This document shows, piece by piece, positions 6,097 through 49,020 of a DNA stretch of 57,629 nt. A model generated the notes under the pieces. It was not told where the DNA came from and made no database searches. It saw only the letters and a program-made list of their open reading frames with translations. Origin of the DNA: a virus. Lineage: Duplodnaviria; Caudoviricetes. The stretch lies in the IMG/VR virus record IMGVR_UViG_3300020044_003994, positions 1-57,629 of that record; one strand, 5' to 3'. Within the stretch, counting starts at the first letter, position 1; each line of letters opens with the position of its first letter. The position numbers and the translations under genes were made by a program.

Positions 6097-6891
6097 TCGG
6101 GTCAGGCTTTGGGTGAATTTAAATAGCCCAAGCCTTTGATGTGCATCATTCGCATCCTCTCCCACCACATCACTCATCCAATAAGGTAGCCCTGTTTGCT
6201 TTGCTACCCTCTCCCCTGTCCCGCTCTCATCGTTGTCGGCAATAACATACCCTCCAAATTTCTGCGCCAGCTTGAGCATATTTCCAGCCGAAAAGCACAC
6301 ATGGATCACATAATTGCGCTTCAAGCACCGCAGCGCATGACGCAACGACAGACCTGTAGCGTACCCCTCACACAGAAAATGCTTGCCCTTGTTATCGAAG
6401 TCAAACGATGCGCCCGAACTCTTCTGCCCTGACAGAAACTTCTTTTCGCCATCCGCATCGATCACTTGGCATCCGACCAGCACCCCATCCACTCGCATCG
6501 GAATGATTAGCCTCTTGTCATTGACCCACCCCTCTTCATCAGGGAACCCCTTGGCTTTGAAGTATGGGTGCTTGCCCAGAAACGATCCATTCAGCAAATC
6601 CTTTGCCTTGATCGCTGCCTTTTCCTGCATCCGAATCTTGTCCTGCTCTGCTTTTTTCACAAGCTGGGCGTAATCCCTGCGGGCACCTTCACTGATTGAG
6701 TCAGGCTTCCATATGGAAACCTCTGTATCGGTGGCGTGGTTCTGCACAAAAGCATGGTCGCCCATGAATTTCACAGCACCATTGCGCTTCTTTGGATGAT
6801 CGACTGTGTGGTAACGTTTCCAGTATCCGATGGGTGGTGGGAAATCAATGACGATCCCATGCGCCCGACAATAATCTACCAACTCCATCAT
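6079..6891 (-). CDS. Toprim-domain DNA primase
   Basis: HPYFKAKG, CEGYATGLS, IADND..G.G, DAND Toprim motifs; start at ATGA overlap 6891. Confidence 0.85.
   Translation of the reverse strand: MMELVDYCRAHGIVIDFPPPIGYWKRYHTVDHPKKRNGAVKFMGDHAFVQNHATDTEVSIWKPDSISEGARRDYAQLVKKAEQDKIRMQEKAAIKAKDLLNGSFLGKHPYFKAKGFPDEEGWVNDKRLIIPMRVDGVLVGCQVIDADGEKKFLSGQKSSGASFDFDNKGKHFLCEGYATGLSLRHALRCLKRNYVIHVCFSAGNMLKLAQKFGGYVIADNDESGTGERVAKQTGLPYWMSDVVGEDANDAHQRLGLFKFTQSLTRSLPIR
6810..6821. repeat. GGWAACGTTWCC palindrome site 1 (in primase, WKRY frame)
   Basis: GTGGTAACGTTTCCAG. Confidence 0.85.
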
Positions 6892-8360
6892 CTTCCCTTC
6901 TTCATCTGCCGGATGTACGCCCTGATACCTTTGTCGATGAACTTGACAATCTCCTGGCTTGGATAGACAGGCTTGTCGTACAAACCCCTGGGCCATACGC
7001 CAAACTTCTCTTTGTAGACATGAGCCGCCCGACCATGCGACCATCCCTGGGTCTGGACATACCATTGCAGCATTGACCACCACTCCTGCTTATCTGCCTT
7101 GGACATGGTTCCGGTTAACTCTTGCAACTCCCCAGGCAACTCTACTACCTTGTTCTTTCGTTCCCGAACATGACCGCAATTACTGCAAGCATCCGAACTG
7201 GAGGGCCACAAAGATCCACAAGCCGGACACTTTGCCGCTTCCTTCTCTTTGTCGGTGGGTTCTGGCTTGGTTTTCTCCTTGCCATCATCCAGCTTATCCA
7301 CGCCATGCTCAAAAACATCTTCCCAATCCTGCCGGAACCGCAGGTAATTGCCGCTGTGATCCAGCCAAACGGCAAACTCTTTCCCCTCGCAGCCGCGCAT
7401 GATGCGACCCATCTGCTGTATGTGGGAGGACAAGGATTTACTAAACGGCCTAGCTGATATGCCGATCAGAACATCCGGCACATCAAAGCCTTTGGTCAGT
7501 ATGTCCGTGGCGATCAGCCCATGAATCTCTGTGTCAGGCTTGGAGAAGTCCTCAATCACATCCCGCTTGAAGGTTTCATCGTCCCTGTAGCTGACCGAAA
7601 TGAAGTTATACCCTTGCTCCGCAAACTTCCTTGCTAGGTCAGCGCCGTGGTTCACACCCGAGCAGAACACGATGGTCTTCACCGGCTTTTTGAATATCTC
7701 ATGGGTCTTCTTAATCCACTCAGCAACAATGTCGCCAGTGATCTTCATGCCCCTGGTGGTGGCTTCCTTCTGACTCCACTCGCCCGCCACCTTCTTGGCA
7801 TCGGTCATGTCGATCTCTTTGGAGATAAACACCTTCAAAGGCACAAGCACATTCTGCTCAACTAGCTGCTTGGTTGTGACTGTTGAGACAACATTGGTGT
7901 ATGTCTTGCCCAACCCCTTGGTGAATGGCGTAGCGGTCAGCCCGATCACACGGATTTCAGGGTTGTTCTTGATGAACTCCATCGTCTGCTGCCGGGTTTG
8001 ATGCGCCTCGTCAACGATCAAAAGGTTTAGACCTGGAAATTCACCCTTTCTCTCAAGGGTTTGCGCCGAACAGACCTGGATCTTTTCGTGCGGCCTGTAT
8101 CTCCAATGACCTGACTGCATCACGCCGTGGTCGATGTGATACTTCTCCAGCCTTTGACTGGTTTGATCGCACAGAATGATCCTGTCCAGCAGCATTGCTG
8201 CCCTGTTGCCCTTCTTTCGGGTGGCTTCAAGCAAAGCTATAGCCATTTCTGTTTTGCCAGCCCCCGTGGGGGCGTAGAGTATCTGAGCATTAGCACCTGC
8301 TGCAAACCCCTGGCGCAAAGCCTCCAGCGTATCGGTCTGGTAGCCTCGTAGCTCAAGCAT
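6888..8360 (-). CDS. SF2 DExH helicase (RadD/YejH-like) with C-terminal zinc ribbon
   Basis: APTGAGKT, DEAH, GLTATP, QQMGRIMR, CPAC..CSNC. Confidence 0.92.
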   Translation of the reverse strand: MLELRGYQTDTLEALRQGFAAGANAQILYAPTGAGKTEMAIALLEATRKKGNRAAMLLDRIILCDQTSQRLEKYHIDHGVMQSGHWRYRPHEKIQVCSAQTLERKGEFPGLNLLIVDEAHQTRQQTMEFIKNNPEIRVIGLTATPFTKGLGKTYTNVVSTVTTKQLVEQNVLVPLKVFISKEIDMTDAKKVAGEWSQKEATTRGMKITGDIVAEWIKKTHEIFKKPVKTIVFCSGVNHGADLARKFAEQGYNFISVSYRDDETFKRDVIEDFSKPDTEIHGLIATDILTKGFDVPDVLIGISARPFSKSLSSHIQQMGRIMRGCEGKEFAVWLDHSGNYLRFRQDWEDVFEHGVDKLDDGKEKTKPEPTDKEKEAAKCPACGSLWPSSSDACSNCGHVRERKNKVVELPGELQELTGTMSKADKQEWWSMLQWYVQTQGWSHGRAAHVYKEKFGVWPRGLYDKPVYPSQEIVKFIDKGIRAYIRQMKKGR

Positions 8361-9147
8361 TTTCCACTGCCTTCAGCTTCTTTTGCATCATTGCCACCTG
8401 CTTTTTTAGCTGGGCATTCTCAGACTGGAACATATCCCGACTCTTCTTGACTGATACCAATTCGATCTGGAGCAGACGGATTTCTTCCTTCAACTCACCG
8501 ATCATGGTGGTTGCCAAGTCCTTTTCTTCAGCCGTTCCATCAATCGTAGCTATGGCTAGCTGCTCTGATAGCTTCTCGTTCTCAGCAACCAAGGCATCCA
8601 GCATCTCCTGCTTATGGTCATAAACAGGGGCTTGCGGCTCCGGCTCCTGGGCTGGGCGGCTGGTAAAAGTGGAAACGTTACCACCTTTGGTCTTGAACTT
8701 GCGGGTTGTTTGCACCTCGCCACCTGACAATTCTTTGCGCACTTTGGCTACGAACACATGGGAAACGCCGCAATGCCTAGCGATTTCACGATCAGCCCAC
8801 TGCTTCCACTCGTGATCTTTGAGCATGATGATTACGGATTTGCGTTTGTCATCGTTGCTGGGGCGTAAGCCGTGGGCTTTGTTGGCCTTCAAGCTGTAGA
8901 GAATGGCTTCCCGCAGCGTACCTTTAACAATGTCTACGTCAATGCTGTCATTCTTCAGCTTGCGATTGGCAAAGTAGCGGTGAAAACCATCCGCTAGGTA
9001 GTATTCCACTCCATCATGAAAGACTATGACCGGGGGGAATTTGGCCCCATCTTCCATCTGCCTTGCGTAATCATCAACAGTTTCCTGGCTGATGGCTACC
9101 CGTGACTGTGTTCCCTTGTCGATGCTAATTAGTTCTATGTTAAACAT
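8353..9147 (-). CDS. ParB/Srx-fold protein with HTH and C-terminal coiled coil
   Basis: PPVIV..LADGFHR arginine-patch region; HTH DREIARHCGVSHVFVAKVR; heptad-rich C-terminus. Confidence 0.85.
   Translation of the reverse strand: MFNIELISIDKGTQSRVAISQETVDDYARQMEDGAKFPPVIVFHDGVEYYLADGFHRYFANRKLKNDSIDVDIVKGTLREAILYSLKANKAHGLRPSNDDKRKSVIIMLKDHEWKQWADREIARHCGVSHVFVAKVRKELSGGEVQTTRKFKTKGGNVSTFTSRPAQEPEPQAPVYDHKQEMLDALVAENEKLSEQLAIATIDGTAEEKDLATTMIGELKEEIRLLQIELVSVKKSRDMFQSENAQLKKQVAMMQKKLKAVENA
8671..8682. repeat. GGWAACGTTWCC site 2 (inside the ParB-like gene)
   Basis: GTGGAAACGTTACCAC. Confidence 0.85.
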
Positions 9148-9150
9148 TTT

Positions 9151-11841: not shown

Positions 11842-11843
11842 GT

Positions 11844-13350: not shown

Positions 13351-13580
13351 GTGTTCTTCTCCTTGAGTTTGGCTTGCGCAAAACGAACGCCACCATGAAA
13401 TGCCGCATAGTTATCTGATTTTTCTGCGTCAGGGTCTATTTCTTCATCCGTCAAGCCAACCCATTCCTTTGGGTGCAAGTACACAGGTACAAGTTCAGCG
13501 CCCATTGCGTTTTGGAATTGATGTTCACCGTAGATGAACAACCCCTCGCCATCCTTGCGGACATATCCGTATGGTTTCAT
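13347..13580 (-). CDS. Cassette protein (WVGLTDEE...AKLKEKNT)
   Basis: Shared junction repeat. Confidence 0.7.
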   Translation of the reverse strand: MKPYGYVRKDGEGLFIYGEHQFQNAMGAELVPVYLHPKEWVGLTDEEIDPDAEKSDNYAAFHGGVRFAQAKLKEKNT

Positions 13581-14107
13581 GCTCCCTCCAGCCTCGCTGG
13601 TTTCACGGCCTCAATCACAAACGCAAAAGAGTTTTCGTTTTCATCAATGAATAGCGCATTGAAGTCAGCTTTGTAGATGCTGCGGAAGTCGGACATGGAA
13701 GTATTACCAACACCCTTGCGGTAAATGTCCTGGCTTAAAAACGACAGGTTCTCCCTTTGCAGCACCCTCGTGTGGCTTGGATCCCCCAGTGCCCACACAG
13801 AAAACCTTGATGGGCAGGTCACAAATAACTGACCGCCCGGCTTCAAAATGCGCCACAACTCTGAAAACTGGGCAAAGAAAAACTTGTAGTCCCCCTGTGC
13901 GCCGGTATGCTCCAGCACCTCATAGGCGTGGATCTCGTCAAACTCATCATCCTCAAAAGGATATGGAATCTGCATCAAGTCCCACACTATGTCCGGCTTG
14001 TGGTCTGGGTTGTAGTCCAGCGTGGTCAGGTTTGTGAACCCTTGTCCGTCTGGGCCAAATAACCTGCGCTCGTGGTTTGACCCACATCCAATCAATAGCT
14101 GCTTCAT
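13577..14107 (-). CDS. Class I SAM-dependent methyltransferase (Methyltransf_11-like)
   Basis: LIGCG, PFEDDEFDEI...VLEH, RILKPGG, DPSH. Confidence 0.8.
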   Translation of the reverse strand: MKQLLIGCGSNHERRLFGPDGQGFTNLTTLDYNPDHKPDIVWDLMQIPYPFEDDEFDEIHAYEVLEHTGAQGDYKFFFAQFSELWRILKPGGQLFVTCPSRFSVWALGDPSHTRVLQRENLSFLSQDIYRKGVGNTSMSDFRSIYKADFNALFIDENENSFAFVIEAVKPARLEGA

Positions 14108-14229
14108 CAGTCTTTCCTTTCTTGTTCGTCCATCCAAAACCAAACCTCTGCGAGTGCGTACAGCACCATCCCAGCTACCGCTACACACAGCGCACCCAGC
14201 AAAAATATCGTTACCACTGTCTCACTCAT
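14107..14229 (-). CDS. Small membrane protein, 40 aa
   Basis: Read by eye; AAGGAG RBS; one TM helix. Confidence 0.55.
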   Translation of the reverse strand: MSETVVTIFLLGALCVAVAGMVLYALAEVWFWMDEQERKD

Positions 14230-14800: not shown

Positions 14801-14806
14801 GTGCAG

Positions 14807-15256: not shown

Positions 15257-15544
15257 TCATACACATTTTTTTAAAATCTCCAAAGCCTCATCCACATTAT
15301 TGACAATAGCTAATAAGCCGCCCGTCCATTCATCAAAGAACTTCTGCTCCGCCTGTGTCAGCGCCCGCGCCGATGGAGACTTGTTTCCATCTTTGACCTC
15401 CAGCAGCAGCGTATAGCCTCTGTAGCCCACCAAAAGATCAGGGACGCCATCACCCATCGTTACCACCCGAACAGTGGCTCCACAGGCCCGCAGCGCAGAA
15501 ACAATTTGCTCCTGATTTGCATCCACTCTATTTGCTCTGCGCAT
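15257..15544 (-). CDS. VRR-NUC-like PD-(D/E)XK nuclease
   Basis: RVDANQ..IV.ALR..G, GVPDLLVGYRG, LLEVKDG, LT..E..F. Confidence 0.8.
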   Translation of the reverse strand: MRRANRVDANQEQIVSALRACGATVRVVTMGDGVPDLLVGYRGYTLLLEVKDGNKSPSARALTQAEQKFFDEWTGGLLAIVNNVDEALEILKKCV

Positions 15545-16280
15545 TGATTTCCTCTATCGGCTTCATCGTTGTGATGTCGTACTTTGCGTGCTTTGTCCAC
15601 ACCCTGATGTAGTTACAGATAGGCCGATCAGGGCAGCTATCACACTTGTGATTCTTGGTGCTGGTGTTTGAGGCGTGGGATCGGTGATAGTGAAGAACAT
15701 GAGGGTTCCTGGCAAACTTGTACCGCTCTGCTAGCTGCATGAACAGATCCCCATCCTCGCAGCCCGCCGTGAGTTTAGTGTTATACCCTTCCACCTGCCG
15801 ATAGGCGGACATATGGTACATACCAAAGTGCCTCCACCCAAACCACGATAGGTTCGGCTCATAGTCCCGGCTGGTCGTGTAGCTGGTAACGTTACCATCT
15901 ACGCCGATTTCGCTGGAATCGCTGTAGACCAGGGCCACATCTGGATGGCTCATCAGATACTGATACTGCATCGCCAAGGCATGGGGATACAGCATATCGT
16001 CCGTATCTAAATGCCCAACGAAATCCCCCTTGATATGGGCCATTGCAGCAGCCCGGTTACCAGGGGTCTTTAAGTTCCGTTCATTCTGGTAAACCCTTAT
16101 TCGCTCATCTTTTTCTGCTAGCTTTTGGGCCAATTCATAGGTGCCATCGGTAGAACGATCATCATTGATCACCAATTCCCAGTTGGGATAGGTCTGCGCC
16201 TGGACACTTTCGATGGCAGCTTTGATGAATTGCACGTTGTTGTAGGCAATCATCATCACGGAAATCAGCGGCAAATTCAT
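15528..16280 (-). CDS. GT2-family glycosyltransferase with C-terminal Cys cluster
   Basis: ISV...YN, AIESV.AQTY.NWEL...DD.STDGT, LDTDD, EDGDL. Confidence 0.9.
   Translation of the reverse strand: MNLPLISVMMIAYNNVQFIKAAIESVQAQTYPNWELVINDDRSTDGTYELAQKLAEKDERIRVYQNERNLKTPGNRAAAMAHIKGDFVGHLDTDDMLYPHALAMQYQYLMSHPDVALVYSDSSEIGVDGNVTSYTTSRDYEPNLSWFGWRHFGMYHMSAYRQVEGYNTKLTAGCEDGDLFMQLAERYKFARNPHVLHYHRSHASNTSTKNHKCDSCPDRPICNYIRVWTKHAKYDITTMKPIEEINAQSK
15885..15896. repeat. GGWAACGTTWCC site 3 (in the GT2 gene)
   Basis: TGGTAACGTTACCA. Confidence 0.85.
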
Positions 16281-16282
16281 GT

Positions 16283-16294
16283 GGTAACGTTTCC
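16283..16294. repeat. GGWAACGTTWCC site 4 (intergenic, next to the GT2 start codon)
   Basis: GTGGTAACGTTTCCAG. Confidence 0.85.
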
Positions 16295-16329: not shown

Positions 16330-16358
16330 TTGACACCACACAATTCATCAGGTACATT
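16330..16358 (+). promoter_or_regulatory. Sigma70-like rightward promoter of the recombination operon
   Basis: TTGACA-N17-TACATT. Confidence 0.7.
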
Positions 16359-16413: not shown

Positions 16414-16987
16414 CATTCATAAATGTCACAGACCATAATGAATCTTTTTTAAAAAAGGAAGAGCCATGACGGGAAAACATTCTGTAACAAATTCTCGAAT
16501 CCCAAAAAACTACAAACTTACAAAAGAATTTTTGGATTCTATTTTTGAATACAGAGACGGTGACTTGTATTGGAAGCTTGAAAAGGCAGGGACTATAGAT
16601 GGAGGCGGCTATTGGCAGACAGGAATTAAAGGCAAGTATTTTAAAAATCATCGCTTGATATTTCTTATGCACCACGGCTATCTGCCCAATGTTATTGACC
16701 ATATTGATGGCAATAGAACCAACAACAAAATTGAAAATTTGCGTGAAGCCACAAGAAGCCAAAACAATTGCAATACAAAAATTCCATCCAACAACACATC
16801 TGGCGTGAAGGGCGTTTCATGGGTAAGTAGATTAAAAAAATGGAGGGTAAGAATTTATGTAGAGAAAAAAATGCACCACTTGGGTTACTTCAATGATTTT
16901 GATGATGCCGTTAAAGCCTCAAAAAAAGCAAGGCAAAAACTCCATAAAAATTTTGCAAGGGAACAATAATGAAACTCACAAACAAAT
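16406..16987 (+). mobile_element. Free-standing homing endonuclease insertion flanked by a 19-nt direct repeat
   Basis: ATGAAACTCACAAACAAAT at 16387 and 16969; AT-rich; own TTGACA-N18-CATAAT promoter. Confidence 0.75.
16466..16969 (+). CDS. HNH homing endonuclease with C-terminal AP2-like domain
   Basis: HRLIF, IDHIDGNRTNNKIENLR, NTSGVKGV.W, W.VRI....HLGYF. Confidence 0.9.
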   Translation: MTGKHSVTNSRIPKNYKLTKEFLDSIFEYRDGDLYWKLEKAGTIDGGGYWQTGIKGKYFKNHRLIFLMHHGYLPNVIDHIDGNRTNNKIENLREATRSQNNCNTKIPSNNTSGVKGVSWVSRLKKWRVRIYVEKKMHHLGYFNDFDDAVKASKKARQKLHKNFAREQ

Positions 16988-17847
16988 TTGGATTACCAGA
17001 AACTATAGTCAACGTTATACATCGGCCCACCTACAGCAAGGGGTCTGCAAACATATCAGCGACAGAACTGCTCAACAGCCCTCGTATCGTTCAACTCAAG
17101 CGCAAGCATTGGGATGAGATTGAGACTGATGCCAGCGAGATGGTCTGGTCACTGTTTGGCTCTGCAGTTCACAACATCTTGGAGCATGGTAAAGATACCC
17201 ACCATATCGTTGAGGAGCGGATCTTCACTGAGTACGATGGTTGGAAGCTGAGCGGCGCGATTGACCTGCAAGAAGTTGAAGACGATGGAATCATCATCTC
17301 CGACTACAAGGTCACAGGCGCATGGTCAGTGATGAATGAGAAACAAGATTGGCACAACCAGCTAAACGTTTACGCATGGCTGGTGGAGAAGGTAAAGAAT
17401 AAGCCTGTCAAGAAACTCCAAATCATTGCCATCGTGCGTGATTGGGTCGCTAGAGACACAGTAAAAGAAGGCTACCCATCATCCCCCATCGCTACGATTG
17501 ACATCCCTCTGTGGCCGTTTATGCACCGTGAGGCATACGTAAAAGACAGGATCAACCTGCATAGCCACGCTTACTTTGAGAGCGAGACTCAAGGAGAAAT
17601 CTCTGACTGCACACCAGAGGAAATGTGGGAAAAGCAAACAACCTATGCCGTCAAGAAAGTTGATGGTGTACGTGCCAAGAGTGTTCACAAGACACTGGAG
17701 GAGGCACAAGCTTCACTTAGCCAGCTTAAGGGCTATTCAATTGAAGTCAGACCGGGCGAACGAACACGCTGCGAAAAGTATTGTCAGGTCAACGGCTTCT
17801 GTTCTCAATACCAAAAATACCTGAAGGAAAAAAATGACAGTGTATAA
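16969..17847 (+). CDS. PD-(D/E)XK exonuclease (Cas4/AddB-like Cys cluster)
   Basis: G.AVH..LE, EER, LSGAIDL, DYKVT, QLNVYAWL, RC..YC....FC. Confidence 0.85.
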   Translation: MKLTNKFGLPETIVNVIHRPTYSKGSANISATELLNSPRIVQLKRKHWDEIETDASEMVWSLFGSAVHNILEHGKDTHHIVEERIFTEYDGWKLSGAIDLQEVEDDGIIISDYKVTGAWSVMNEKQDWHNQLNVYAWLVEKVKNKPVKKLQIIAIVRDWVARDTVKEGYPSSPIATIDIPLWPFMHREAYVKDRINLHSHAYFESETQGEISDCTPEEMWEKQTTYAVKKVDGVRAKSVHKTLEEAQASLSQLKGYSIEVRPGERTRCEKYCQVNGFCSQYQKYLKEKNDSV

Positions 17848-18520
17848 AAAGCTGCAAGCAGCAAGACATGAGCTTTCAAAAGCCAACCTCAAGAAATCAG
17901 GATTGAATTCTTTTGGCGGCTGGAAATACTACGAACTGGGAGACTTTATTCCCACAGTGAACAAGATCTTTGATGAGAAGGGATTGTGTGGCGTGTTCTC
18001 CTTTGGGGAAGTGGCAACGTTAACAATCTTTGATTCAGAAACTGGTGATGGAGTCGTGTTCTCCACCCCTATCGTCTATGCCGAGAGCAACAAGGGACAA
18101 CCTATCCAGTTGCTGGGCAGCACCCATTCTTATTTGCGCCGTTACCTTTGGTTGATGGCGATGGAGATTGTTGAGTCCGATGCGGTGGACGCTGAGAAGC
18201 AAGAGGAAAAGCCAGAGCCGGTGAAGGTCAAGGTCAAGCCACCAGCAAAGATCGCCGGAGCGGATAACCCCTGGCAGCTTTCAATCACAACAGATGAATC
18301 AGCAGGTCTGCAAGATTGGCTGAACATTGTTGTCGAGGCTACACGCATGGCACTGCGTCAGGCCAAATCAGAGAAAGATGTGCTGGACATCTTCAAGGTT
18401 AATCGGGTGATCTTTGATCGCCTGAAAGCAGAATCCGAAGAGGATCATGTCGCCATCCTGGGCGATTTCAAGAAACGCAAAGACGAACTGAAGGAGGAAA
18501 GCAATGGCACAGTACCCTAA
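17834..18520 (+). CDS. erf: ERF-family ssDNA annealing protein
   Basis: KKSG.N.F....Y.EL.D, Q.LGS..SY.RRY. Confidence 0.8.
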   Translation: MTVYKKLQAARHELSKANLKKSGLNSFGGWKYYELGDFIPTVNKIFDEKGLCGVFSFGEVATLTIFDSETGDGVVFSTPIVYAESNKGQPIQLLGSTHSYLRRYLWLMAMEIVESDAVDAEKQEEKPEPVKVKVKPPAKIAGADNPWQLSITTDESAGLQDWLNIVVEATRMALRQAKSEKDVLDIFKVNRVIFDRLKAESEEDHVAILGDFKKRKDELKEESNGTVP

Positions 18521-20876: not shown

Positions 20877-21135
20877 CAATCTCACCGCCAAGCAGAAGGC
20901 GCACATAGGCAGAGTGAAGATGCTTCCCTGCTCTGTCTGTGACGCGCCAGCACCGTCTGATGCTCACCACATAGAACAATCGTTGCAGTATTGCGTAGTG
21001 GCCCTATGCAAAGACTGCCACCAGGGTTCTATGATGGGGTGGCACGGGCAGAAAAGAATGTGGAAGATCAAGAAAATGGAAGAGCTTGACGCCCTAAACG
21101 TTACCATCGAAAGGCTGTTAGATGTACGTGATTAG
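20869..21135 (+). CDS. Ref/DUF968-like HNH-type zinc nuclease
   Basis: PCSVC, AHHI, ALCKDCHQG; TTG start. Confidence 0.7.
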   Translation: MNNNLTAKQKAHIGRVKMLPCSVCDAPAPSDAHHIEQSLQYCVVALCKDCHQGSMMGWHGQKRMWKIKKMEELDALNVTIERLLDVRD

Positions 21136-21859
21136 TAGCTCTGGCGGCAACGATAGCGTTGCAATGATTCAGTGGGCAATAGAGCAAAAGCTGCCCGATG
21201 TCCATGTAACGTTCTGCGACACAGGCTGGTCTGCCCCCGGCTGGATGGTTCGTATCGATAAAGTACACGCCTACGCCGAGGCGCACGGCATGAAAACACA
21301 CATCGTCAAAAGCATTGGGATGCACGACCTTGTGCGCACAAAGAAGGGCTTCCCAGGTAACGCCCAGCAATTCTGCACCGCACACCTCAAAGGCGTACCG
21401 TTCTTAGAATGGATTGATGAGGAAGACAAAGAGTGCAAGGCCGTGGTCATGGTGGGTAAGCGCAGGGCCGAGAGCGAGGCCCGTAAGGCTACGCCACAGT
21501 TTGTGTACGGCTCAGACTACCACGGCGGCAGAACCCTTTGGCACCCTCTCTACCTACACACAGATGCAGACAGGAATAAACTGCTTAGCCGGTCTGGGTT
21601 TGAAGCGTTACCGCACAGATCACTTGAGTGCAACCCATGTGTGAATGCAAATCGATCAGACTTCCTGCGCCTAACACCTGGAGAGATTGAGCGGGTCAAT
21701 GAGCTTGAGGTAGAGATAGGCAAGCCCATGTTTAGGCCAAAGCGATTCAGCGCCCTGGGCATCTATGGCGTCATTGCCTGGGCAAAAGACGGAAGAGATC
21801 GTGGAGACTTTGCCGAAGAGGATGCTCAATGCTCATCACTCTTTGGCTGCGGTCTATAG
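21122..21859 (+). CDS. PAPS-reductase-family (PP-loop) protein
   Basis: SSGGNDS PP-loop, DTGW, GFP...QFCT.HLK, G.RRAES..R, C.PC. Confidence 0.85.
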   Translation: MYVISSSGGNDSVAMIQWAIEQKLPDVHVTFCDTGWSAPGWMVRIDKVHAYAEAHGMKTHIVKSIGMHDLVRTKKGFPGNAQQFCTAHLKGVPFLEWIDEEDKECKAVVMVGKRRAESEARKATPQFVYGSDYHGGRTLWHPLYLHTDADRNKLLSRSGFEALPHRSLECNPCVNANRSDFLRLTPGEIERVNELEVEIGKPMFRPKRFSALGIYGVIAWAKDGRDRGDFAEEDAQCSSLFGCGL

Positions 21860-21876
21860 TGGAAACGTTTCCACTA
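21857..21876. repeat. GGWAACGTTWCC site 5: perfect 20-bp palindrome between two convergent stop codons
   Basis: TAGTGGAAACGTTTCCACTA. Confidence 0.9.
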
Positions 21877-35749: not shown

Positions 35750-36100
35750 TCAACCAACCTTCCAATTTGTGCCGTCTGAATACACGGGGGTAGCCACTGC
35801 CCCACCTGTCACCACGGTTGCCCCAAACACTGGAGCCAAAGCATCAGATACAAAAGCTCTAGCCCCCTTACCGCTGGTAACTGCACTTGGTAACGTTACC
35901 ACCGTGTAGACAGTGGTTGAAATTGTGTTGAGTGTCGTTGCATTAAGCTGAGCAAAGAGACTGTCCAGGCGGTTGAAGTACAGCCTCAAAACGTTGTTTA
36001 GCTGATCTTGATACGGGCGGTTGTATTCCTCAGTAGCAAGCGGCAAAGCTGGCGCTGCTACCTTATTGAGTGCAAAATCAGATGTGACGATTAAAGTCAT
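35750..36100 (-). CDS. Conserved tail-region protein
   Basis: APALPLA..EY...[14 protein letters not shown]; PVYSDGTNW. Confidence 0.65.
35889..35900. repeat. GGWAACGTTWCC site 10
   Basis: TGGTAACGTTACCA. Confidence 0.85.
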
Positions 36101-38424
36101 CTACGTCCATCCTGGCGGATGTCGATACGTGGTGAGCCAAGCTGCCAAGTCACACCTGCCGCCGTAGATCTAACCTCCATAGCTATCTGCCTCCCTCTCA
36201 CCCGAGTATAGATCTGCCCGGTAAATTCCTCTATAGGGAGAATGGCCGTTCTGGTGACAGTAGCATTGTTTTCTCCGCCCACCGATGCTGGAGTGTTATA
36301 CCCAGAGCCTGAGTTTTGCATGGGTTTGAGATACATCGTCACTTGTGGGCTAGCCGCAGTCGATCCCCTGAACGTAATGTCAGGCAGCACACGCCAAATA
36401 AACCCAAACCTATCCCCATCTTCCAAGTCAATCTCAGCAGATGTGATAAAAGCCTCAATTGGTAACGTTACCGCCGTAGTGTTATCGTCTACGCCTTGCT
36501 CGTGGTTCACGATGTTGTAGTCGTAGGTGGCAGCAAGGGGATAGTCTCGCAGACCGCTATCCAGCCAAGCCGTTCTAGCCATTGAGCCGTAGTACCAGCA
36601 GCCTTGACCCTGGTTTTCTGCGTAGTTGAAGACCACGTAGCTGTCAATATTTTTGCTTGTGCCAGAGCAATAGAACCACCAAATCTCATTAAAACCCTCG
36701 TTTGTTCCTGCAAGAACCTGGGTAAATTGAGATTTATTGATGGTTGAAAACACGTATTGGCGCAAATCGCAATTCTGTGTCTGGGTTCTACCATCGTATT
36801 TGTAGAACTTATCCACACCCATCCAGTACGCCACGCCGTTAGCGTAAGCAACAGCGTTTTCTGATGCAATAGAAATGTTATCGCCAACAATTTGTGGAGC
36901 CCATACATTAGGGGCTCCCACATACTGTAGAGAATAAAGAGATGAATCAGTCCACACCAAGATTTCTTGACGGGCCTGCATGGCTGTAATAATCTGTGAC
37001 CCGTGCGAAAGGTAAGTAAATCCAGCATCGACAGTGGGGCTTGGCGTCCAATTGAAAGGATCTCCCTGGTCTGACCAGCGGATAATCATTGGATTAAACG
37101 TGGCAGATCCGTACTCCGTGGCCCCGAAAGCAAACACAAATCGGCTGGAATCAGATACCAATATGTAATTTTGGGCAATCGGAACATCTGTTGCGCCACC
37201 GTAATCTGCCAAATCTATGGCTCTAGAAGAAATCTTGTGAACCCCTGATTGTGATCCGGTGGTGGCTATGGCAGATCCACCGTAGGTAGCAGACAAATTA
37301 CACGAGGTTCCCGATGAATTGATGACGTAGTACACCTGCCCCACGTTCAATCCAGTAGGCAGCGCACCCGTTGTAGTCAGCACAATTGCCATCCCATCAG
37401 CCAATGTAATGGATGTAGACAGCACTCCCGGCGTAGCAATCGTCACGGTGAATGTCGTGCCTGTCAATCCAAATGAGGCATCCCAATAGTAAATACTACC
37501 GCCGCTTGGGCCAAAAATCAGATCTTCGCCAAAGTTACTTTGACTCCATACACGGAACGTTTGCTGCGATTCTGTTCCATTTCCCCAGGTTCCAGACCCC
37601 CACGTTCCTGCACCCCACCCAACAACCGCAGCAGCATATGAAGCGCCCGTAGCTATTTGATAAGCAGCCCGAACAGTGCCTCCGCCCGTAGCAGTAGAAG
37701 AAGCCTTAGCCGTTACCGTGCAAATCCCTGATTGAGTTGAGCCTGTGGTATTAATTGCAGCCCCGCCAGAGGTCAAAGACAGGCTGAATGTATAGTCCGA
37801 TGTAGCAACAACATAATAGGTTGTTCCTGCCACAAAAGGGTAAGGCAGTGTACCCGTAGTGGATAACGTTACCTGAACATTGTTGGCAAGCTGAAACTGA
37901 GTTGTAAAAATGGCGCTACCAGCAAGCGAAATTGACGCTTCCGATTGCACCGGCACGGTGTAAGTGTTGGCCGTGGTGGTGTAGGTTAAAAGGTATTCCC
38001 CCAGCAAAGTAATGCCACCATTGGACGATGAGCCCGTGAAGGTTACATAGCCATTGTTTGAGTACCCGCCGTTTGCATCAGTGACCGTTACCGTGGACGA
38101 TCCACTCACCATAGCAAATGGATTGGTCAGCGTGTTGGTTTGATTGATCGGGGTTATATCGTAGTAAAAGCCACCGCTTTCGATGTAAAACTTTAAATTG
38201 GTTCCTACGCCCAGGAGCTTTTGTGCGCCAAGCGTAACCCATGCCCACAGGGAGCGGCACACACCAATAAACTTTTGTGCAGAGATTTGTTGCCAACCGC
38301 CAATTTTCTCTGGCGTACCCTGGCGAAAGCGAATCTTGTCACAGTCATACCACCCATTCTCACTGGTGTAACGGGTGTTCTCCTTGTTTACACCGGGCCT
38401 GAGTAGAAGTTTTTTGAGTGGCAT
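36097..38424 (-). CDS. Tail hub/nozzle (P22 gp10-like DNA stabilisation) protein
   Basis: 775 aa beta-rich; RFRQG.PEKIGGW, IRWSDQ, NEIWWFY, C-terminal DGRR; position. Confidence 0.65.
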   Translation of the reverse strand: MPLKKLLLRPGVNKENTRYTSENGWYDCDKIRFRQGTPEKIGGWQQISAQKFIGVCRSLWAWVTLGAQKLLGVGTNLKFYIESGGFYYDITPINQTNTLTNPFAMVSGSSTVTVTDANGGYSNNGYVTFTGSSSNGGITLLGEYLLTYTTTANTYTVPVQSEASISLAGSAIFTTQFQLANNVQVTLSTTGTLPYPFVAGTTYYVVATSDYTFSLSLTSGGAAINTTGSTQSGICTVTAKASSTATGGGTVRAAYQIATGASYAAAVVGWGAGTWGSGTWGNGTESQQTFRVWSQSNFGEDLIFGPSGGSIYYWDASFGLTGTTFTVTIATPGVLSTSITLADGMAIVLTTTGALPTGLNVGQVYYVINSSGTSCNLSATYGGSAIATTGSQSGVHKISSRAIDLADYGGATDVPIAQNYILVSDSSRFVFAFGATEYGSATFNPMIIRWSDQGDPFNWTPSPTVDAGFTYLSHGSQIITAMQARQEILVWTDSSLYSLQYVGAPNVWAPQIVGDNISIASENAVAYANGVAYWMGVDKFYKYDGRTQTQNCDLRQYVFSTINKSQFTQVLAGTNEGFNEIWWFYCSGTSKNIDSYVVFNYAENQGQGCWYYGSMARTAWLDSGLRDYPLAATYDYNIVNHEQGVDDNTTAVTLPIEAFITSAEIDLEDGDRFGFIWRVLPDITFRGSTAASPQVTMYLKPMQNSGSGYNTPASVGGENNATVTRTAILPIEEFTGQIYTRVRGRQIAMEVRSTAAGVTWQLGSPRIDIRQDGRR
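36461..36472. repeat. GGWAACGTTWCC site 11
   Basis: TGGTAACGTTACCG. Confidence 0.8.
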
Positions 38425-41291: not shown

Positions 41292-41309
41292 GGTTTACTC
41301 CTTTAAGGT

Positions 41310-43550: not shown

Positions 43551-43559
43551 GTTTAAACC

Positions 43560-44381
43560 TCAAGTTACGACTTCTTCCCAATTGGCGGTCTGTTCGTCTG
43601 AAACATTTGACCAATTAGGAGTCTGCGGGTTGCTGATATTTTGCCACGATGCGACCTGCGTGTCATCTATAGGTTTCCAATAAACCGCAATAACATCACC
43701 TGCCGCACCTACTGCGCTTACGCCTGTCAAAGCCAGTGACCTTTCTGCCACTGACACTGTTCCAACGGATCCTGATGCCAACACTCCAGACAAAGCAATG
43801 GATATTCCACTGACAACCGTTCCCACGGAACCATCTGCCTGCAACGATGGCAGAGGGACAATTACTCCACCTGGGGATCCTGTTGCTAGATTACCCGTCA
43901 AACTGACCGCTGCGCTCTGAACAATTGTTCCTACGGCCCCAGAAGCCTCAACACCAGTCAAAGCACTGCTCTTGTCACCGGTAACGTTACCAGTGGCTCC
44001 AGATGCCTCAGAGCCCGTCAAGGCCACCAATCTTGATGTCGTGATAGTCCCAACTGCACCAGATGCCAATACGCTGGTAATTGCTGCATCTTGACCGCTG
44101 GTAACGTTACCAACTGATCCCGCCGCAGAAACACCCGTCAGCGCAACCTCTAGAGTTACCCCTACGCTACCAACATCCCCATATGCAATGTCTCCATCTT
44201 CACCCTCTGAGGTGCTGGGGGCCATTGTCCCAACAGCACCGGCAGCCAATACCCCCGAAAGGGCAATGATGAGATTTGGTGTGGCAGATCCTACCGCGCC
44301 TGTGGCGGTATTACCTGTGAGGTCAAGAGTACCGCCCCATCCGTTACTCCCCCATGTGCCATCACCCCACCCGAGAGACAC
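43560..44381 (-). CDS. Gly/Ser/Ala-rich repetitive structural protein
   Basis: WG.G.WG..GWGG; ALTGV.A.G.VG repeats; GTG start. Confidence 0.65.
   Translation of the reverse strand: MSLGWGDGTWGSNGWGGTLDLTGNTATGAVGSATPNLIIALSGVLAAGAVGTMAPSTSEGEDGDIAYGDVGSVGVTLEVALTGVSAAGSVGNVTSGQDAAITSVLASGAVGTITTSRLVALTGSEASGATGNVTGDKSSALTGVEASGAVGTIVQSAAVSLTGNLATGSPGGVIVPLPSLQADGSVGTVVSGISIALSGVLASGSVGTVSVAERSLALTGVSAVGAAGDVIAVYWKPIDDTQVASWQNISNPQTPNWSNVSDEQTANWEEVVT
43980..44111. repeat. GGWAACGTTWCC sites 12 and 13 (43980, 44100)
   Basis: GGTAACGTTACCA twice. Confidence 0.8.
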
Positions 44382-44392
44382 GGCCTACCCCT

Positions 44393-44869
44393 TTAGGTGG
44401 TAGCCAAGCGCAACAGAGCAGTCGAAGTCGTATTGGCAGGCATCGTCAATGTAAAGGTTCCAGCCGTGATCGTCTGGGAACCAAAGGTGTGAACACTAAC
44501 GGCCTTGTTACTCTGTGTTGAGTTATAGATTAACACTGCATCAAACGCCGTGGTCAGCGTCACCGTGGTGTAGCTGATCGAAGCCGAAGGCGTCCAGTAC
44601 GCTGTGCCTGCGGTTGTCGAGGTGTTTGAAGATAGCGGAGCCGTTGCGTTTGTGACTGTCACGCCGCCAGCAGAGTACCCAGTGCCAGACACTTCACCAG
44701 AGGCGGAATAAGCTGTGGTGGAAGCATTGATCGTTGCCGATGCAAGATACAAAGCCGCTTTAAACGTGTCAGCAGTGGTGGCTGCACGGATCGGTGCAGT
44801 GCCAAAGTTGTGGGTTGCTGTCAAAACCTCGCCCAAGAACGAAGTGGTCATTGCTTGTGTGTTACTCAA
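44393..44869 (-). CDS. Structural protein, paralog of 45504..45926
   Basis: TTSF..E, FK.ALY, Y.AGG, LIYNS...K.V.V..FG. Confidence 0.7.
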   Translation of the reverse strand: MSNTQAMTTSFLGEVLTATHNFGTAPIRAATTADTFKAALYLASATINASTTAYSASGEVSGTGYSAGGVTVTNATAPLSSNTSTTAGTAYWTPSASISYTTVTLTTAFDAVLIYNSTQSNKAVSVHTFGSQTITAGTFTLTMPANTTSTALLRLATT

Positions 44870-45302
44870 TTGAGTTCTCCTTAAGATAAGAGATTGCGTT
44901 TAAAAGAAATTTTGGATTATCCAAAAACAAACCTAATCCAGTGTTGCAGCGCATACAGAGTAACCCACGAACTGAGCCAGTGTTATGACAGTGATCTATA
45001 AAAAACATTCTAGTTCTGCCGCCCGGATTTTTGGTAAAACAAATAGCGCATTTGCCATTTTGTTTTTCCAACATATTTTCATATTGTTCTATCGTTATTC
45101 CATAAGTAGCTTTGATTTTGCTTTTGCGCTCAATCGCAAGAACTTTTTCTTTGTTATTTTTTCTGTACTCTTTGTTATAAGCTACCCTGCAAGATGTGCA
45201 TCTTGGAAAAGGCTTTCCGGGTCTTTGAGTTTTACTCACGGAAAAAGCAGACAGAGGCTTTTCCTCTTTACACGCAGTGCATGTATGCGTCAGCTTCGCC
45301 AT
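44862..45302 (-). CDS. Endonuclease VII-family nuclease (probable free-standing homing endonuclease)
   Basis: YGIT..QY..M...Q.G.CAIC, IDHCH.TG.VRGLLC..CN.GLG; AT-rich. Confidence 0.85.
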   Translation of the reverse strand: MAKLTHTCTACKEEKPLSAFSVSKTQRPGKPFPRCTSCRVAYNKEYRKNNKEKVLAIERKSKIKATYGITIEQYENMLEKQNGKCAICFTKNPGGRTRMFFIDHCHNTGSVRGLLCMRCNTGLGLFLDNPKFLLNAISYLKENSIE

Positions 45303-45312
45303 GATGTTTCCT

Positions 45313-46842: not shown

Positions 46843-47018
46843 TATTTGCTCCCAGATTTCTGGTTCATTGCGCGGGAAAGATTCTTCCCATACATCTTGC
46901 GATCCATGCTGGTAGGGCCACCGGCTTTCATGCCTTTGGTGTGCATACGAGATTCATGGCCTTTGACCATTTTCTTGGCTTCGGTGTCGGCAATCGCCTT
47001 AACTTGCTTCTTGTCCAT
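46842..47018 (-). CDS. Small basic protein, 58 aa (HESRMH..MKAGG)
   Basis: Read by eye; AGGAG RBS. Confidence 0.7.
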   Translation of the reverse strand: MDKKQVKAIADTEAKKMVKGHESRMHTKGMKAGGPTSMDRKMYGKNLSRAMNQKSGSK

Positions 47019-47026
47019 ATCTGCTC

Positions 47027-48375: not shown

Positions 48376-48617
48376 TTCATGGCTCTCATGTTGTCAACCA
48401 AGTTTGGATATGGGCGACCAGCCTTCTTTGCCGTTGCTTTGGCAAAAGCCTTCTGCGCCAAACTCAGCTTCTTATGCTTTTTAGCGGGATTAGGCTTGTT
48501 CCAAACCTCTCCGCCTTCAGCATACTGTGTGAAGTCAGTGTCATCACGCCGTGCCTTCCTCACCCCCTTGGGCATTTTGGAAGGGTTTACTGCGCCCATT
48601 CCTCGGCTGGGCATCAT
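48372..48617 (-). CDS. Small basic protein (YAEGG; GRPYPNLVDNM)
   Basis: ORF track. Confidence 0.65.
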   Translation of the reverse strand: MMPSRGMGAVNPSKMPKGVRKARRDDTDFTQYAEGGEVWNKPNPAKKHKKLSLAQKAFAKATAKKAGRPYPNLVDNMRAMK

Positions 48618-48618
48618 C

Positions 48619-49020
48619 TCAGCACTTCCCGCCGCGCATCATGCCACGGTTACCAGCCATAGAGATTTTCTTGCCCTGGGTCTTGCCTTTGGTAGCAATG
48701 CCATCACGGCTAGGGGCAGCAGTTTTGACAGCGCCCATCTTGGTAGTGGAAACGTTACCACCCTTTTTCATGCCCATCATCTCAGCCTTTTCATGCTTGA
48801 CCATAGACTTGGGAGCGCCTTTTGCCTTCATAAAAGACACTTCTTTTTTAACCATCGCTTTAGATTCTTTCATGTCACCACCTCGTGAAAATGTTTTGCC
48901 TTTATCGGCTTTTGCAAACTCTTTTCCCACGGATTGTGGGACTCCTACTTTCTTGGCGAACGATGGATTGTGGGCCACCGCCTCCATGAATCTGTGCTGT
49001 TTGGCGCTATGTGAGGGCAC
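48619..49020 (-). CDS. Small basic protein with three xxGG motifs
   Basis: S.KQ..FM.AVAH.P.FAKKVGVPQSVG.EF. Confidence 0.7.
   Translation of the reverse strand: MPSHSAKQHRFMEAVAHNPSFAKKVGVPQSVGKEFAKADKGKTFSRGGDMKESKAMVKKEVSFMKAKGAPKSMVKHEKAEMMGMKKGGNVSTTKMGAVKTAAPSRDGIATKGKTQGKKISMAGNRGMMRGGKC
48748..48759. repeat. GGWAACGTTWCC site 14
   Basis: GTGGAAACGTTACCAC. Confidence 0.85.

Follow-up and report, generated by a model that had tools for sequence, protein, structure and literature searches.

Occurrence of the palindrome in the phage genome

What maintains a short palindrome throughout the genome of an uncultured 58-kb phage, and what reads it? In the window (the whole stretch of DNA analysed, 57,629 nt), GGWAACGTTWCC is present in exactly 14 exact copies, against a mean of 0.01 in 100 dinucleotide shuffles, none of which reached 14. 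Twelve of the copies extend to the 14-base palindrome TGGWAACGTTWCCA, while a control with the reversed pattern gave 0. If up to one mismatch is allowed, there are 25 matches in the window, compared to a mean of 0.32 and a maximum of 2 in 100 shuffles. The 11 one-mismatch copies, to which no strand is assigned, start at 1578, 2963, 5230, 19050, 22813, 23881, 25378, 32717, 37862, 39929 and 49746 (span 1578-49757). A sequence-only reading of this DNA had listed the same 14 positions, the 12 extensions to TGG...CCA and the 11 imperfect copies, and all of them were recovered.

Two of the 14 copies are intergenic and 12 lie in ORFs, where they occupy three reading frames (encoding WKRY once, GNV[ST] six times and V[EV]TLP five times). 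Synonymous-codon shuffling within genes leaves a mean of 2.27 exact copies (maximum 5, n=300), and codon permutation a mean of 2.03 (maximum 3, n=300). Both means count the two intergenic copies, which were never shuffled, and hence the 12 coding copies observed have to be compared with about 0.3 expected. The codon-preserving control proposed earlier thus bears out the claim that the constraint acts on DNA and not on protein, in agreement with the three frames, the intergenic copies and the conservation described below. The palindromes are functional DNA sites, maintained by DNA-level selection. There is no clear sign of a classical operator role, since 12 of the 14 sites are inside ORFs and not at promoters.

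The copy TGGTAACGTTTCCA (6810-6821) is located inside the primase-like ORF 6079-7083 and is kept in the relatives G001 and G006. The copy TGGAAACGTTACCA (8671-8682) lies within the gene for a ParB-like protein, where it encodes GNVS of a predicted hairpin; it is kept in 8 of 8 aligned relatives, with local identity of 80-88%. One copy (15885-15896) is found in the GT2 glycosyltransferase ORF 15528-16280, and an intergenic one (16283-16294) lies 2 nt upstream of that ORF's start codon, where the junction is divergent; the latter is kept in G001. Promoter-like sites are seen nearby on the plus strand, at 16330 and 16410. The other intergenic copy (21861-21872), between the convergent ORFs 21122-21859 and 21874-28608, retains the motif in G001 with a W change. 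The giant ORF 21874-28608 harbours three copies (27272-27283, 27347-27358 and 27449-27460). The remaining ones are found in ORF 30144-32030 (31398-31409), ORF 35750-36100 (35889-35900), ORF 36097-38424 (36461-36472, 12-mer only, ...CCG), ORF 43560-44381 (43980-43991, 12-mer only, CGG..., and 44100-44111) and ORF 48619-49020 (48748-48759).

The three copies in the giant ORF share a VETLPP peptide context, as might be expected if the repeats had merely arisen through the coding sequence, through duplication or by chance. This explanation is refuted by the use of three frames and two intergenic sites, by the 12 coding copies against about 0.3 in shuffles, by the absence of a tandem repeat in the giant ORF, whose three copies have only a 19-bp core in common, and by conservation beyond background. 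Its probability is practically nil.

Conservation of the sites in related phages

Three relatives preserve the palindrome sites more often than background conservation would explain. G001 retains the motif at all 11 alignable sites, with 10 identical copies, against a background of 45.7% identical aligned 12-mers (P=0.0025). G006 retains it at 5 of 6 sites, 4 identical (background 9.1%, P=9e-4), and G025 at 3 of 4 sites, 2 identical (background 5.5%, P=0.017).

The ParB-like protein

The protein encoded by ORF 8353-9147 (minus strand, 264 aa) combines a ParB/sulfiredoxin (Srx) fold, an HTH and a coiled coil, and is the proposed reader of the palindromes. It matches the PHROGs family phrog_1033 'ParB-like partition protein' over residues 1-136 (E=1e-17). 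There was no Pfam match at 1e-3, and HTH_23 appeared only at E=0.043. The AF2 model (mean pLDDT 82.8) consists of an N-domain (1-91), helices 98-110, 119-126 and 130-140, a hairpin (148-162) and a coiled coil (178-263). Its top Foldseek matches are Noc (7ol9/7nfu), ParB (7bnk/6t1f) and KorB (8qa9), with E ~1e-6 and alignments of about 140 columns that span the N-domain and HTH. The assignment as a ParB-fold protein with an HTH, made earlier from the sequence, is therefore upheld. The protein is predicted to dimerise: the homodimer model scores 0.50, compared to 0.01 for the best of 3 controls, and of 30 proteins with structures solved as same-chain pairs, 20 reach the mark for this score, but of 23 solved as single chains only 1 does. 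Runs agree in at least 72% of contacts, partner pLDDT is at least 69, and the predicted interface comprises residues 179-262, in register.

It had also been suggested that the protein loads and spreads as a CTPase. The GERRxRA CTP motif is not kept: its place is taken by GFHRYFA, which is sulfiredoxin-like, and among solved structures the closest in sequence is a sulfiredoxin. CTP-driven spreading is therefore unsupported. With a pocket of this type, any clamping or spreading might depend on CTP, on ATP or on no nucleotide switch. No ParA-binding peptide was found in the protein. As anticipated, no ParA or integrase family was detected in the window, by comparison of 103 ORFs with Pfam and 76 ORFs with PHROGs. 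The window contains no canonical parS and nothing parS-like even at 3 mismatches, and no lysogeny or plasmid-maintenance genes were seen among its genes. The protein is thus an orphan member of the ParB family, KorB/Noc-like, without ParA, ParA-binding peptide or canonical parS. Its gene is at the head of a primase-helicase module: the primase-like ORF 6079-7083 and the helicase ORF 6888-8360 (6079-8360, minus strand) lie directly downstream and belong to a module that is always co-inherited with it.

Co-occurrence of the protein and the palindromes

Seven loci with homologues of 87-95% identity contain 14 exact copies of the palindrome, and 80 capsid-relative loci contain 1. G001 encodes the protein at 93% identity and carries 13 palindromes, and G002-G005 have neither the protein nor the palindromes. 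In G004, a weak, broken ParB-like fragment was noticed (E=2e-4). Among genomes at least 90% complete, three or more AACGTT-centred 14-bp palindromes are present in 11 of 18 carriers of the gene, but in 0 of 5 non-carriers (Fisher p=0.024). The expected difference in the motif between relatives with and without the gene is thus seen in part. The motif does co-occur with the gene; however, 7 of the 18 carriers have fewer than three AACGTT palindromes, and scans of three carriers (G012, G018 and G019) revealed no enriched palindrome of any kind. Moreover, the five non-carriers lack primase, helicase, exonuclease, Erf, g19614 and g20015, that is, the whole replication module, and by BLAST mostly also this type of TerS; less than 15% of their DNA can be aligned with the window. 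Presence and absence therefore cannot single out the ParB-like protein. The pattern would also be expected if another co-inherited phage protein read the palindromes and the ParB-like protein were a passenger. Candidates would be the small terminase TerS, if the sites were of pac type, the primase or helicase, if they served replication or priming, or a small protein of uncharacterised function.

Co-variation of half-sites and recognition helix

Relatives of about 60 kb with homologues of 42-95% identity have variant palindromes, mostly AACGTT-centred. The variants that accompany homologues of 42-84% identity are TGGCAACGTTGCCA, TGACAACGTTGTCA, YTGCAACGTTGCAR, CCATAACGTTATGG, CTCAAACGTTTGAG, TGGAA-N4-TTCCA (10 copies), GGTAACTAGTTACC and GATAACTAGTTATC. 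In 17 dereplicated loci, V or P in the recognition helix goes with W, T or A at base 4 (10 of 10), and T or E with C (6 of 7), an association with Fisher p=6e-4, uncorrected for phylogeny. The recognition helix is the best predictor of whether motif class is shared (AUC 0.91), followed by the whole ParB-like protein (0.85). The outer half-site bases thus co-vary with the recognition helix, as the sequence-only reading had proposed to examine, with exceptions: L245 and L084 (helix SHTF, but TGGT), L248 (CAGT), L285 and L288 (CTGT), and L301. When pairs are grouped by overall identity, the helix is only slightly more similar in same-motif pairs (0.66) than in different-motif pairs (0.59). In several clades, class-specific sites are found in or adjoining the proposed reader gene, at varying positions within it.

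Five other proteins of the same genomes predict motif class less well than the helix, with an AUC of 0.72 for TerS, 0.60 for primase, 0.71 for both helicase and exonuclease, and 0.58 for Erf, which argues against another co-inherited protein as the reader; the values for g19614, g20015, capsid, portal and TerL are 0.68, 0.77, 0.69, 0.73 and 0.66. The small ORF 15257-15544 also attains 0.91 (13 genomes), but G001 and G008 have no copy of it despite their 13 and 10 sites. The N-terminal region of TerS is HTH-like, and in 10 of 14 relatives a class-specific site is found beside terS, at most 600 bp upstream of terL. However, G011 (TGGW) and G023 (GATAACT) have almost identical N-terminal helices in TerS. 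No other module protein has a DNA-binding domain at E<=1, and 14 dispersed pac sites or origins would be unusual. We therefore consider a passenger role of the ParB-like protein rather unlikely.

The co-variation also bears on the suggestion that a host factor, a LacI-family repressor or another dimeric HTH protein, reads AACGTT palindromes collected by the phage. The constant AACGTT core indeed resembles the cores of LacI-family operators. Yet from one related phage to another, the outer bases follow the recognition helix that the phage itself encodes, which disfavours a host reader. Furthermore, in relatives whose capsids are 85-90% identical and which lack the ParB-like gene, none of 25 AACGTT sequences is part of such a palindrome, and the Pfam scan found no LacI-family protein encoded in the window. 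A host reader is therefore highly unlikely.

The palindromes could also be substrates for an activity that modifies, nicks or recombines DNA at specific sequences; the ParB-like protein would then be an activator, a specificity factor or a bystander. Activation of a DNA thymine dioxygenase by phage ParB-like proteins has been reported (PMC13229309), and genes for a methyltransferase, two glycosyltransferase-like proteins, a PAPS-reductase-like protein, an HNH endonuclease and endonuclease VII are present in the window. None of these enzymes is common to the motif-bearing relatives, however: G014 alone has the methyltransferase and G025 alone the PAPS reductase, GT2 is confined to G001 and G002, endonuclease VII occurs in 3 of them, and HNH in none. 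There is also no Pfam match to a 2OG-dioxygenase family in the window. A substrate role appears very unlikely.

Proposed role of the ParB-like protein

It is thus reasonably probable that the TGGWAACGTTWCCA palindromes, as selected functional sites, are the cognate sites predicted for the phage's own 264-aa ParB-like protein. The coiled coil would make a parallel dimer, so that two HTHs could read the two half-sites. The protein may nucleate at the palindromes on phage DNA, much as KorB does at its operators and Noc at its own sites, and could then control or organise the late region (structural and packaging genes). One or more anchoring sites might lie just upstream of the large terminase gene, as in the relatives; this region is outside the window. 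The system probably serves to control or organise late or packaging DNA.

Comparison with known systems

Canonical ParABS systems, including those of P1 and N15, share the ParB-fold HTH dimer and palindromic sites, one of them inside or beside parB, and N15 has dispersed centromeres. In contrast, the phage described here has no ParA, ParA-binding peptide, parS-like sequence or GERRxRA, and no lysogeny or plasmid-maintenance genes were seen. The immunity repressor and stoperators of cluster A mycobacteriophages are similar in that a phage HTH protein has tens of cognate sites genome-wide; many of them lie within the transcribed region, and they act on expression genome-wide (PMC9283540). Stoperators, which belong to temperate phages, are asymmetric and read by a monomer (PMC9283540), whereas the sites here are palindromic, the predicted reader is a ParB-fold dimer, and there is no integrase. 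Partner-less phage ParB folds with non-partition roles are exemplified by thymine dioxygenase activators (PMC13229309) and orphan ParB-CTPase folds (PMC12704722), for whose phage members the available text describes no cognate dispersed palindrome. The activators have no obvious DNA-binding domain and work together with a dioxygenase (PMC13229309), an enzyme that the window lacks, and divergent orphan folds can bind ATP or GTP instead of CTP (PMC12704722).

Noc of Bacillus is likewise an orphan ParB paralogue without ParA that reads a 14-bp palindrome. Its sites are scattered over the genome, mostly inside genes; it is chromosomal, CTP-dependent and membrane-tethering, and has the GERR motif. 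Sequence identity is only 18%, and the half-sites and C-terminal domain differ.

KorB is accompanied by a ParA-type partner and has roughly a dozen sites. The fold match to KorB (8qa9) extends over 153 columns (E ~5e-6). Unlike KorB, the phage protein has a GFHRYFA pocket, a long C-terminal coiled coil and no identified partner, and 12 of the 14 sites are inside ORFs of an apparently non-integrating phage. KorB itself is described as a sliding clamp, a CTPase of the GERR type, that acts together with KorA at promoters (PMC11790492). KorB and its OB operators in RK2 resemble the phage system in the ParB-fold N-domain with HTH, in several copies of a short palindrome over a mobile replicon of about 60 kb, and in a role beyond partition (PMC11790492).

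The palindromes are constrained as DNA

The 12-bp palindrome GGWAACGTTWCC occurs in 14 exact copies, at the positions claimed in the sequence-only reading, against 0.01 expected from dinucleotide shuffles. Twelve of the 14 extend to TGGWAACGTTWCCA, and the 11 one-mismatch copies were likewise all found, for a total of 25 sites with at most one mismatch (0.32 expected). The copies fall in all three reading frames (12 in ORFs), and two are intergenic, one at a divergent and one at a convergent junction. In the codon-preserving shuffle check that had been proposed together with the motif, synonymous shuffling within genes, with each protein and its codon usage kept, left a mean of 2.27 copies (300 shuffles, maximum 5), a figure that includes the two unshuffled intergenic copies; codon permutation left a mean of 2.03. 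The three copies in the giant gene have a common stretch of only 19 bp, which rules out tandem or segmental duplication as their origin. Frames, intergenic copies, shuffles and the absence of duplication thus place the constraint on the DNA, as had been claimed, and the chance that the palindromes are a by-product of coding sequence is negligible in view of the synonymous shuffles and the frames. The palindromes are a real, selected and dispersed DNA feature. A site-free stretch of about 16 kb, from 48.8 kb across the contig ends to 6.8 kb, is by our own estimate about what 14 random points would leave, and we read no meaning in it.

Conservation in relatives and the site in front of terL

In alignable relatives, site retention was compared with a background defined as the share of aligned 12-mers identical between relative and window. 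The related genome G001, about 90% identical over 73% of the window, keeps the motif at 11 of 11 alignable sites, 10 of them identical (background 45.7%, P = 0.0025). Two more distant genomes keep it at 5 of 6 sites, 4 identical (G006; background 9.1%, P = 9e-4), and at 3 of 4 sites, 2 identical (G025; background 5.5%, P = 0.017). Among more distant genomes the sites lie in different genes, yet number about 10-13 in several of them. That the number stays steady while the genes that host the sites differ suggests selection on having sites, beyond particular positions alone. Class-specific sites, that is, sites of a genome's own palindrome variant, recur within or beside the ParB-like gene, at positions that differ by clade.

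Another recurrent position lies upstream of terL. The end of the window (57583-57629) interrupts the portal gene, and the approximately 3.9 kb missing from it can be seen in G001 (locus L213, 11769-15667), where they hold terS (phrog_51), a 123-aa ORF and terL (phrog_38). Two palindrome copies precede terL there, by 82 and 34 bp, and the former lies within a 26-bp inverted repeat. The same pair is present in G006 and four other contigs, and a scan of viral contigs for TGGTAACGTTACCA returned, among the matches listed, loci with paired sites upstream of terL. Of 14 genomes, 10 have a class-specific site at most 600 bp upstream of terL, against a chance expectation of about 1.1 (P ~1e-9); these 14, which represent several motif classes, are the genomes in which terL and a class-specific site could both be located. 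A promoter scan that covers the sigma-70-like type only found no match with the terL-upstream pair.

Gene content of the window

The 57,629-bp record is linear and about 91% complete by estimate. Pfam and PHROGs scans describe a tailed phage, with capsid (52480-53391), portal (56027-57583, truncated by the contig end), SU10-type adaptor proteins, tail fibre and lysozyme. The replication and recombination set comprises primase-like (6079-7083), helicase (6888-8360), PD-(D/E)XK exonuclease (16969-17847) and Erf (17834-18520) genes. As listed, the primase-like and helicase ORFs overlap by about 196 nt (6888-7083), and the former probably has its true start further downstream; just below this overlap is the palindrome at 6810. 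The giant gene (21874-28608, minus strand) encodes a 2244-aa protein with an LPD38 domain near its C-terminus. Residues 10-631 of this protein resemble the PHROG for virion RNA polymerases of the N4 type; a polymerase domain itself was not found in it. There are no tRNA genes in the window.

Several genes may be mobile insertions or accessory elements. An HNH endonuclease with an AP2-like tail (16466-16969, plus strand), which has a homologue in 0 of 26 compared relatives, directly precedes the conserved exonuclease gene and looks like a homing-endonuclease insertion. An endonuclease VII gene (44862-45302, minus strand) within the structural operon may likewise be a mobile insertion, since only 3 of the 26 relatives have it. 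The PAPS-reductase-like (21122-21859, plus strand), methyltransferase (13577-14188, minus strand) and GT2 (15528-16280, minus strand) genes, each in only 1-2 of 26 relatives, look like accessory cargo that has no relation to the palindromes; a link of the palindromes to PAPS reductase, methyltransferase and glycosyltransferases was ruled out, as these are not common to the motif-bearing relatives.

A megablast of the giant gene found no close relative among GenBank phages. A tblastn search of GenBank phages with the ParB-like protein returned only seven records, at 29-40% identity and none of them studied, so a cultured close relative is absent.

The ParB-like protein: fold, predicted dimer and pocket

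The ORF at 8353-9147 (minus strand, 264 aa) has no Pfam match at 1e-3. Its residues 1-136 match phrog_1033, 'ParB-like partition protein' (E = 1e-17), and the family contains 2194 proteins at E ≤ 1e-3, many with precomputed PF02195. An AlphaFold2 model based on 76 homologues (mean pLDDT 82.8) predicts an N-domain (residues 1-91), three helices (98-110, 119-126 and 130-140, the last two forming an HTH), a beta hairpin (148-162) followed by a disordered linker, and a long coiled coil (178-263). The top Foldseek matches to this model are Noc (7ol9, 7nfu), ParB (7bnk, 6t1f) and KorB (8qa9), with E ~1e-6 and 16-19% identity over about 140 columns of N-domain and HTH, the matched chains being C-terminally truncated; Srx is matched as well. 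By sequence the HTH is matched only weakly, by HTH_23 (E = 0.043). Profile matches include plant sulfiredoxin (Srx; 1.4e-6), which is the best sequence match among solved structures, and M. xanthus ParB (4.6e-4). The earlier assignment of the ORF as a ParB-family protein with an HTH is borne out, since both the N-terminal ParB/Srx fold and the HTH are found.

Folding of two copies predicts a parallel, in-register dimer through residues 179-262, with a score of 0.50 (best of three controls 0.01), contact agreement of at least 72% and partner pLDDT of at least 69 across runs. Of 30 proteins solved as homo-pairs, 20 attain the dimer mark, as does 1 of 23 that were solved as single chains. C-terminal dimerisation is thus predicted to occur through a different structure, a parallel coiled coil. 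Such a dimer would fit a palindromic site.

In the profile alignment, GFHRYFA of the ParB-like protein stands opposite AGERRWRA of M. xanthus ParB, and neither the GERRxRA arginine patch nor the catalytic glutamate for CTP binding and hydrolysis is found. Residues D53, G54, H56, R57 and A60 are invariant in the 76 homologues. QPR has Q14-S-R16 as its counterpart and the asparagine of VEN has N89, both invariant, with alanine in place of the glutamate before the asparagine. Judged from these residues, the nucleotide pocket is not canonical, and the CTP-driven spreading or clamping that had been envisaged gains no backing from them (GFHRYFA against GERRxRA). Divergent members of the ParB-CTPase fold may bind ATP or GTP, according to PMC12704722.

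Co-occurrence of the palindrome and the ParB-like gene

Seven viral contigs with 87-95% identical homologues of the ParB-like protein contain 14 exact copies of the palindrome, and 80 loci around 84-96% identical capsid genes contain one. Among five long relatives, G001 has both the protein and 13 copies, and G002 to G005 have neither. We added 21 more records and counted only genomes at least 90% complete. The expectation that relatives with and without the ParB-like gene would have or lack the motif holds in part: at least three AACGTT-centred 14-bp palindromes are present in 11 of 18 carriers and in 0 of 5 non-carriers (Fisher p = 0.024), and seven carriers remain below three. In the non-carriers, 0 of 25 AACGTT occurrences have palindromic flanks. 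The contrast is weaker than at first sight, because the non-carriers also lack the whole primase-helicase-exonuclease-Erf module and mostly this TerS type. They have less than 15% alignable DNA in common with the window, and one of them, G004, has a weak, broken ParB-like fragment. A further 42 capsid-relative records checked for the gene are all fragments, none at least 90% complete, so that absences among them carry no meaning.

The seven carriers with fewer than three AACGTT palindromes include G016, with ten copies of TGGAA-N4-TTCCA (0.14 expected), and G020, with GGTAACTAGTTACC. G023, only 70% complete, has GATAACTAGTTATC. No enriched palindrome was found in scans of G012, G018 and G019.

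Some ParB-less genomes have repeats of their own. G002 (L217-L218; 32842-40095) contains nine exact copies of (C)ATCTAAGGCTTAGAT(G), in a single orientation and clustered within about 7 kb, unlike the dispersed palindromes; they may serve the early region of G002 as promoters or operators. G022 (L370-L373) is enriched in 13-mer inverted repeats with half-sites GTACGA and GTACCA (half-site counts of 29 and 28), G003 (L220-L223) has six copies of GTAGTG-N4-CACTAC, and G005 (L228-L231) has four of GGGTCAC-N-GTGACCC.

Co-variation of recognition helix and half-site

Loci with 42-84% identical homologues carry variant palindromes, mostly with the AACGTT core and with different outer bases: TGGCAACGTTGCCA, TGACAACGTTGTCA, YTGCAACGTTGCAR, CCATAACGTTATGG, CTCAAACGTTTGAG, CATAAACGTTTATG, CAGTAACGTTACTG and CTGTAACGTTACAG. 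When the recognition helices are aligned in the frame V-S-x-x-x-V, SH(V/P)(F/Y) goes with the half-site TGGW, SHTF with TGGC, SYTF with TGAC, SAEF with YTGC, SQPF with CCAT or CTCA, and SPML with the split TGGAA...TTCCA. The suggested co-variation of motif and helix is thus present, with exceptions: among 17 dereplicated loci that have two or more sites, V or P in the helix accompanies W, T or A at half-site position 4 in 10 of 10 cases, and T or E accompanies C in 6 of 7 (p = 6e-4, without correction for relatedness). The change from P to T together with TGGC is found in two separate sub-clades, in L281 (with 'QCCVSH' proteins) and elsewhere in L271 and L292. The exceptions are L245 and L084 (SHTF with TGGT), L248, L285, L288 and L301. 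For the lineage of G016 (L347-L350; helix VSPMLV), the variable centre of TGGAA-N4-TTCCA indicates that the outer bases are constrained and the AACGTT core is not.

The palindrome TGGWAATATTACCA, with the same outer bases and an AATATT centre, occurs in the homologue-carrying contigs L269 (3081, 7871) and L307 (3110). In L235 and L131, one-mismatch copies of the window's motif are numerous, which suggests relaxed or shifting specificity.

As a control, we asked which protein's similarity best predicts that two genomes have a common motif class, without correction for phylogeny. The AUC was 0.91 for the recognition helix of the ParB-like protein and 0.85 for the whole protein, followed by g20015 (0.77), portal (0.73), TerS (0.72), helicase and exonuclease (0.71 each), capsid (0.69), g19614 (0.68), TerL (0.66), primase (0.60) and Erf (0.58). 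The sole equal of the helix is the ORF at 15257-15544 (95 aa), with 0.91 on 13 genomes; it was ruled out as reader, being absent from G001 and G008, which have 13 and 10 sites. No DNA-binding family was matched in the other conserved module proteins even at E ≤ 1. Within bands of overall identity, helix identity gives a weak contrast between motif groups, and we therefore rely on the position-specific correspondence and the comparison of AUC values between proteins.

On the indirect evidence of co-occurrence and co-variation, it is fairly probable that the ParB-like protein binds the palindromes. That another protein of the module, such as TerS, reads them instead would fit the non-carriers, which mostly lack this TerS type; the lower AUC of TerS (0.72 against 0.91) makes it unlikely. 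A host factor as reader has a very slim chance in our estimate, and no LacI-family repressor is encoded in the window according to Pfam.

Possible function

If the ParB-like protein binds as proposed, the analogy with KorB and Noc suggests that its dimer could nucleate on phage DNA at the palindromes. Because the gene heads the primase-helicase operon, the protein would be expressed with replication. The best-conserved site stands before the packaging genes, and others lie along the 36-kb late operon. Gene position, the site in front of terL and the sites along the late operon lead us to prefer, over partition, a role in controlling or organising late expression or packaging.

A wider and distinctly speculative reading, which we consider improbable as a whole, is that palindromes and orphan ParB-like dimer give a virulent phage its genome identity. 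The dimer would load at an anchor site before the terminase genes and also at satellite sites, about a dozen in number, and replicated phage DNA would be marked for organised late expression or packaging, or shielded. The fast diversification of helix and site among similar phages of about 60 kb might then reflect competition between co-infecting relatives, with specificity groups comparable to those of plasmid incompatibility or phage immunity, and the nucleotide switch would be other than canonical CTP chemistry. It is very unlikely that the palindromes are instead a target of modification, nicking or recombination: phage ParB activators of thymine dioxygenases are known (PMC13229309), but no family of such a partner enzyme was matched in the window.

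The feature is real, and in the literature searched it is a variant of the orphan-ParB kind that has not been described before, with a testable specificity code. The several hundred homologues (407 loci in one collection) form a natural series in which candidate sites can be read from the genomes, and the specificity change, W or C at half-site position 4 with V/P or T in the recognition helix, lends itself to bench experiments. The conserved position before the terminase genes points to late-gene or packaging control. Binding, if true, would bear on the reach of clamp-and-slide mechanisms beyond CTP-type ParBs and would offer orthogonal protein/site pairs for DNA labelling.

Comparison with known systems

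Orphan ParB-fold proteins are common in phages, and to our knowledge the DNA target is known for almost none. Searches of open-access text yielded no account of a ParB-fold phage protein that has its cognate palindrome throughout the genome.

The system is not a member of the ParABS group, because ParA, a ParA-binding peptide and parS are all missing. As previously noted from sequence, the window encodes neither ParA nor integrase: there are no ParA/CbiA/AAA_31 matches, and no integrase or repressor families, in 103 ORFs searched with Pfam or 76 with PHROGs. The ParA-binding peptide, defined as (L|F|I)G[KR]G(L|F|I) in PMC12704722, has no match in the 264 aa of the protein, which begins directly with the fold. 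The difference from chromosomal parS also stands, the consensus TGTTNCACGTGAAACA having no match in the window at up to three mismatches. Nor is the protein a sulfiredoxin, since the catalytic Cys is missing: sulfiredoxins are single-domain proteins with this Cys in GCHR, whereas here the motif is GFHR, with Phe, and HTH and coiled coil are added. The 5mYOX-associated phage ParB has an Fe/2OG dioxygenase partner and no DNA-binding domain, whereas here no dioxygenase family was matched and an HTH is present.

The arrangement is also reminiscent of stoperators in Cluster A mycobacteriophages (PMC9283540). As described there, stoperators are asymmetric, orientation-dependent and bound by a monomeric repressor of temperate phages; here the sites are palindromic, the protein is a predicted dimer and there is no integrase.

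The closest working likeness is to KorB at its operators on RK2 (PMC11790492), or to Noc at its sites. With KorB the window has in common the many copies of one operator on a replicon (here 14 exact and 11 near). Operators of a KorB-type regulator lie at promoters or close to them, and KorA acts as its clamp-locking partner. Here only 2 of 14 sites are intergenic, one of them 36 bp from a promoter-like match, and no such partner was found. The ParB-like protein lacks the GERR motif of a ParB-type CTPase. If the binding is true, an apparently virulent phage would have a system of the KorB/Noc type whose nucleotide pocket is sulfiredoxin-like.
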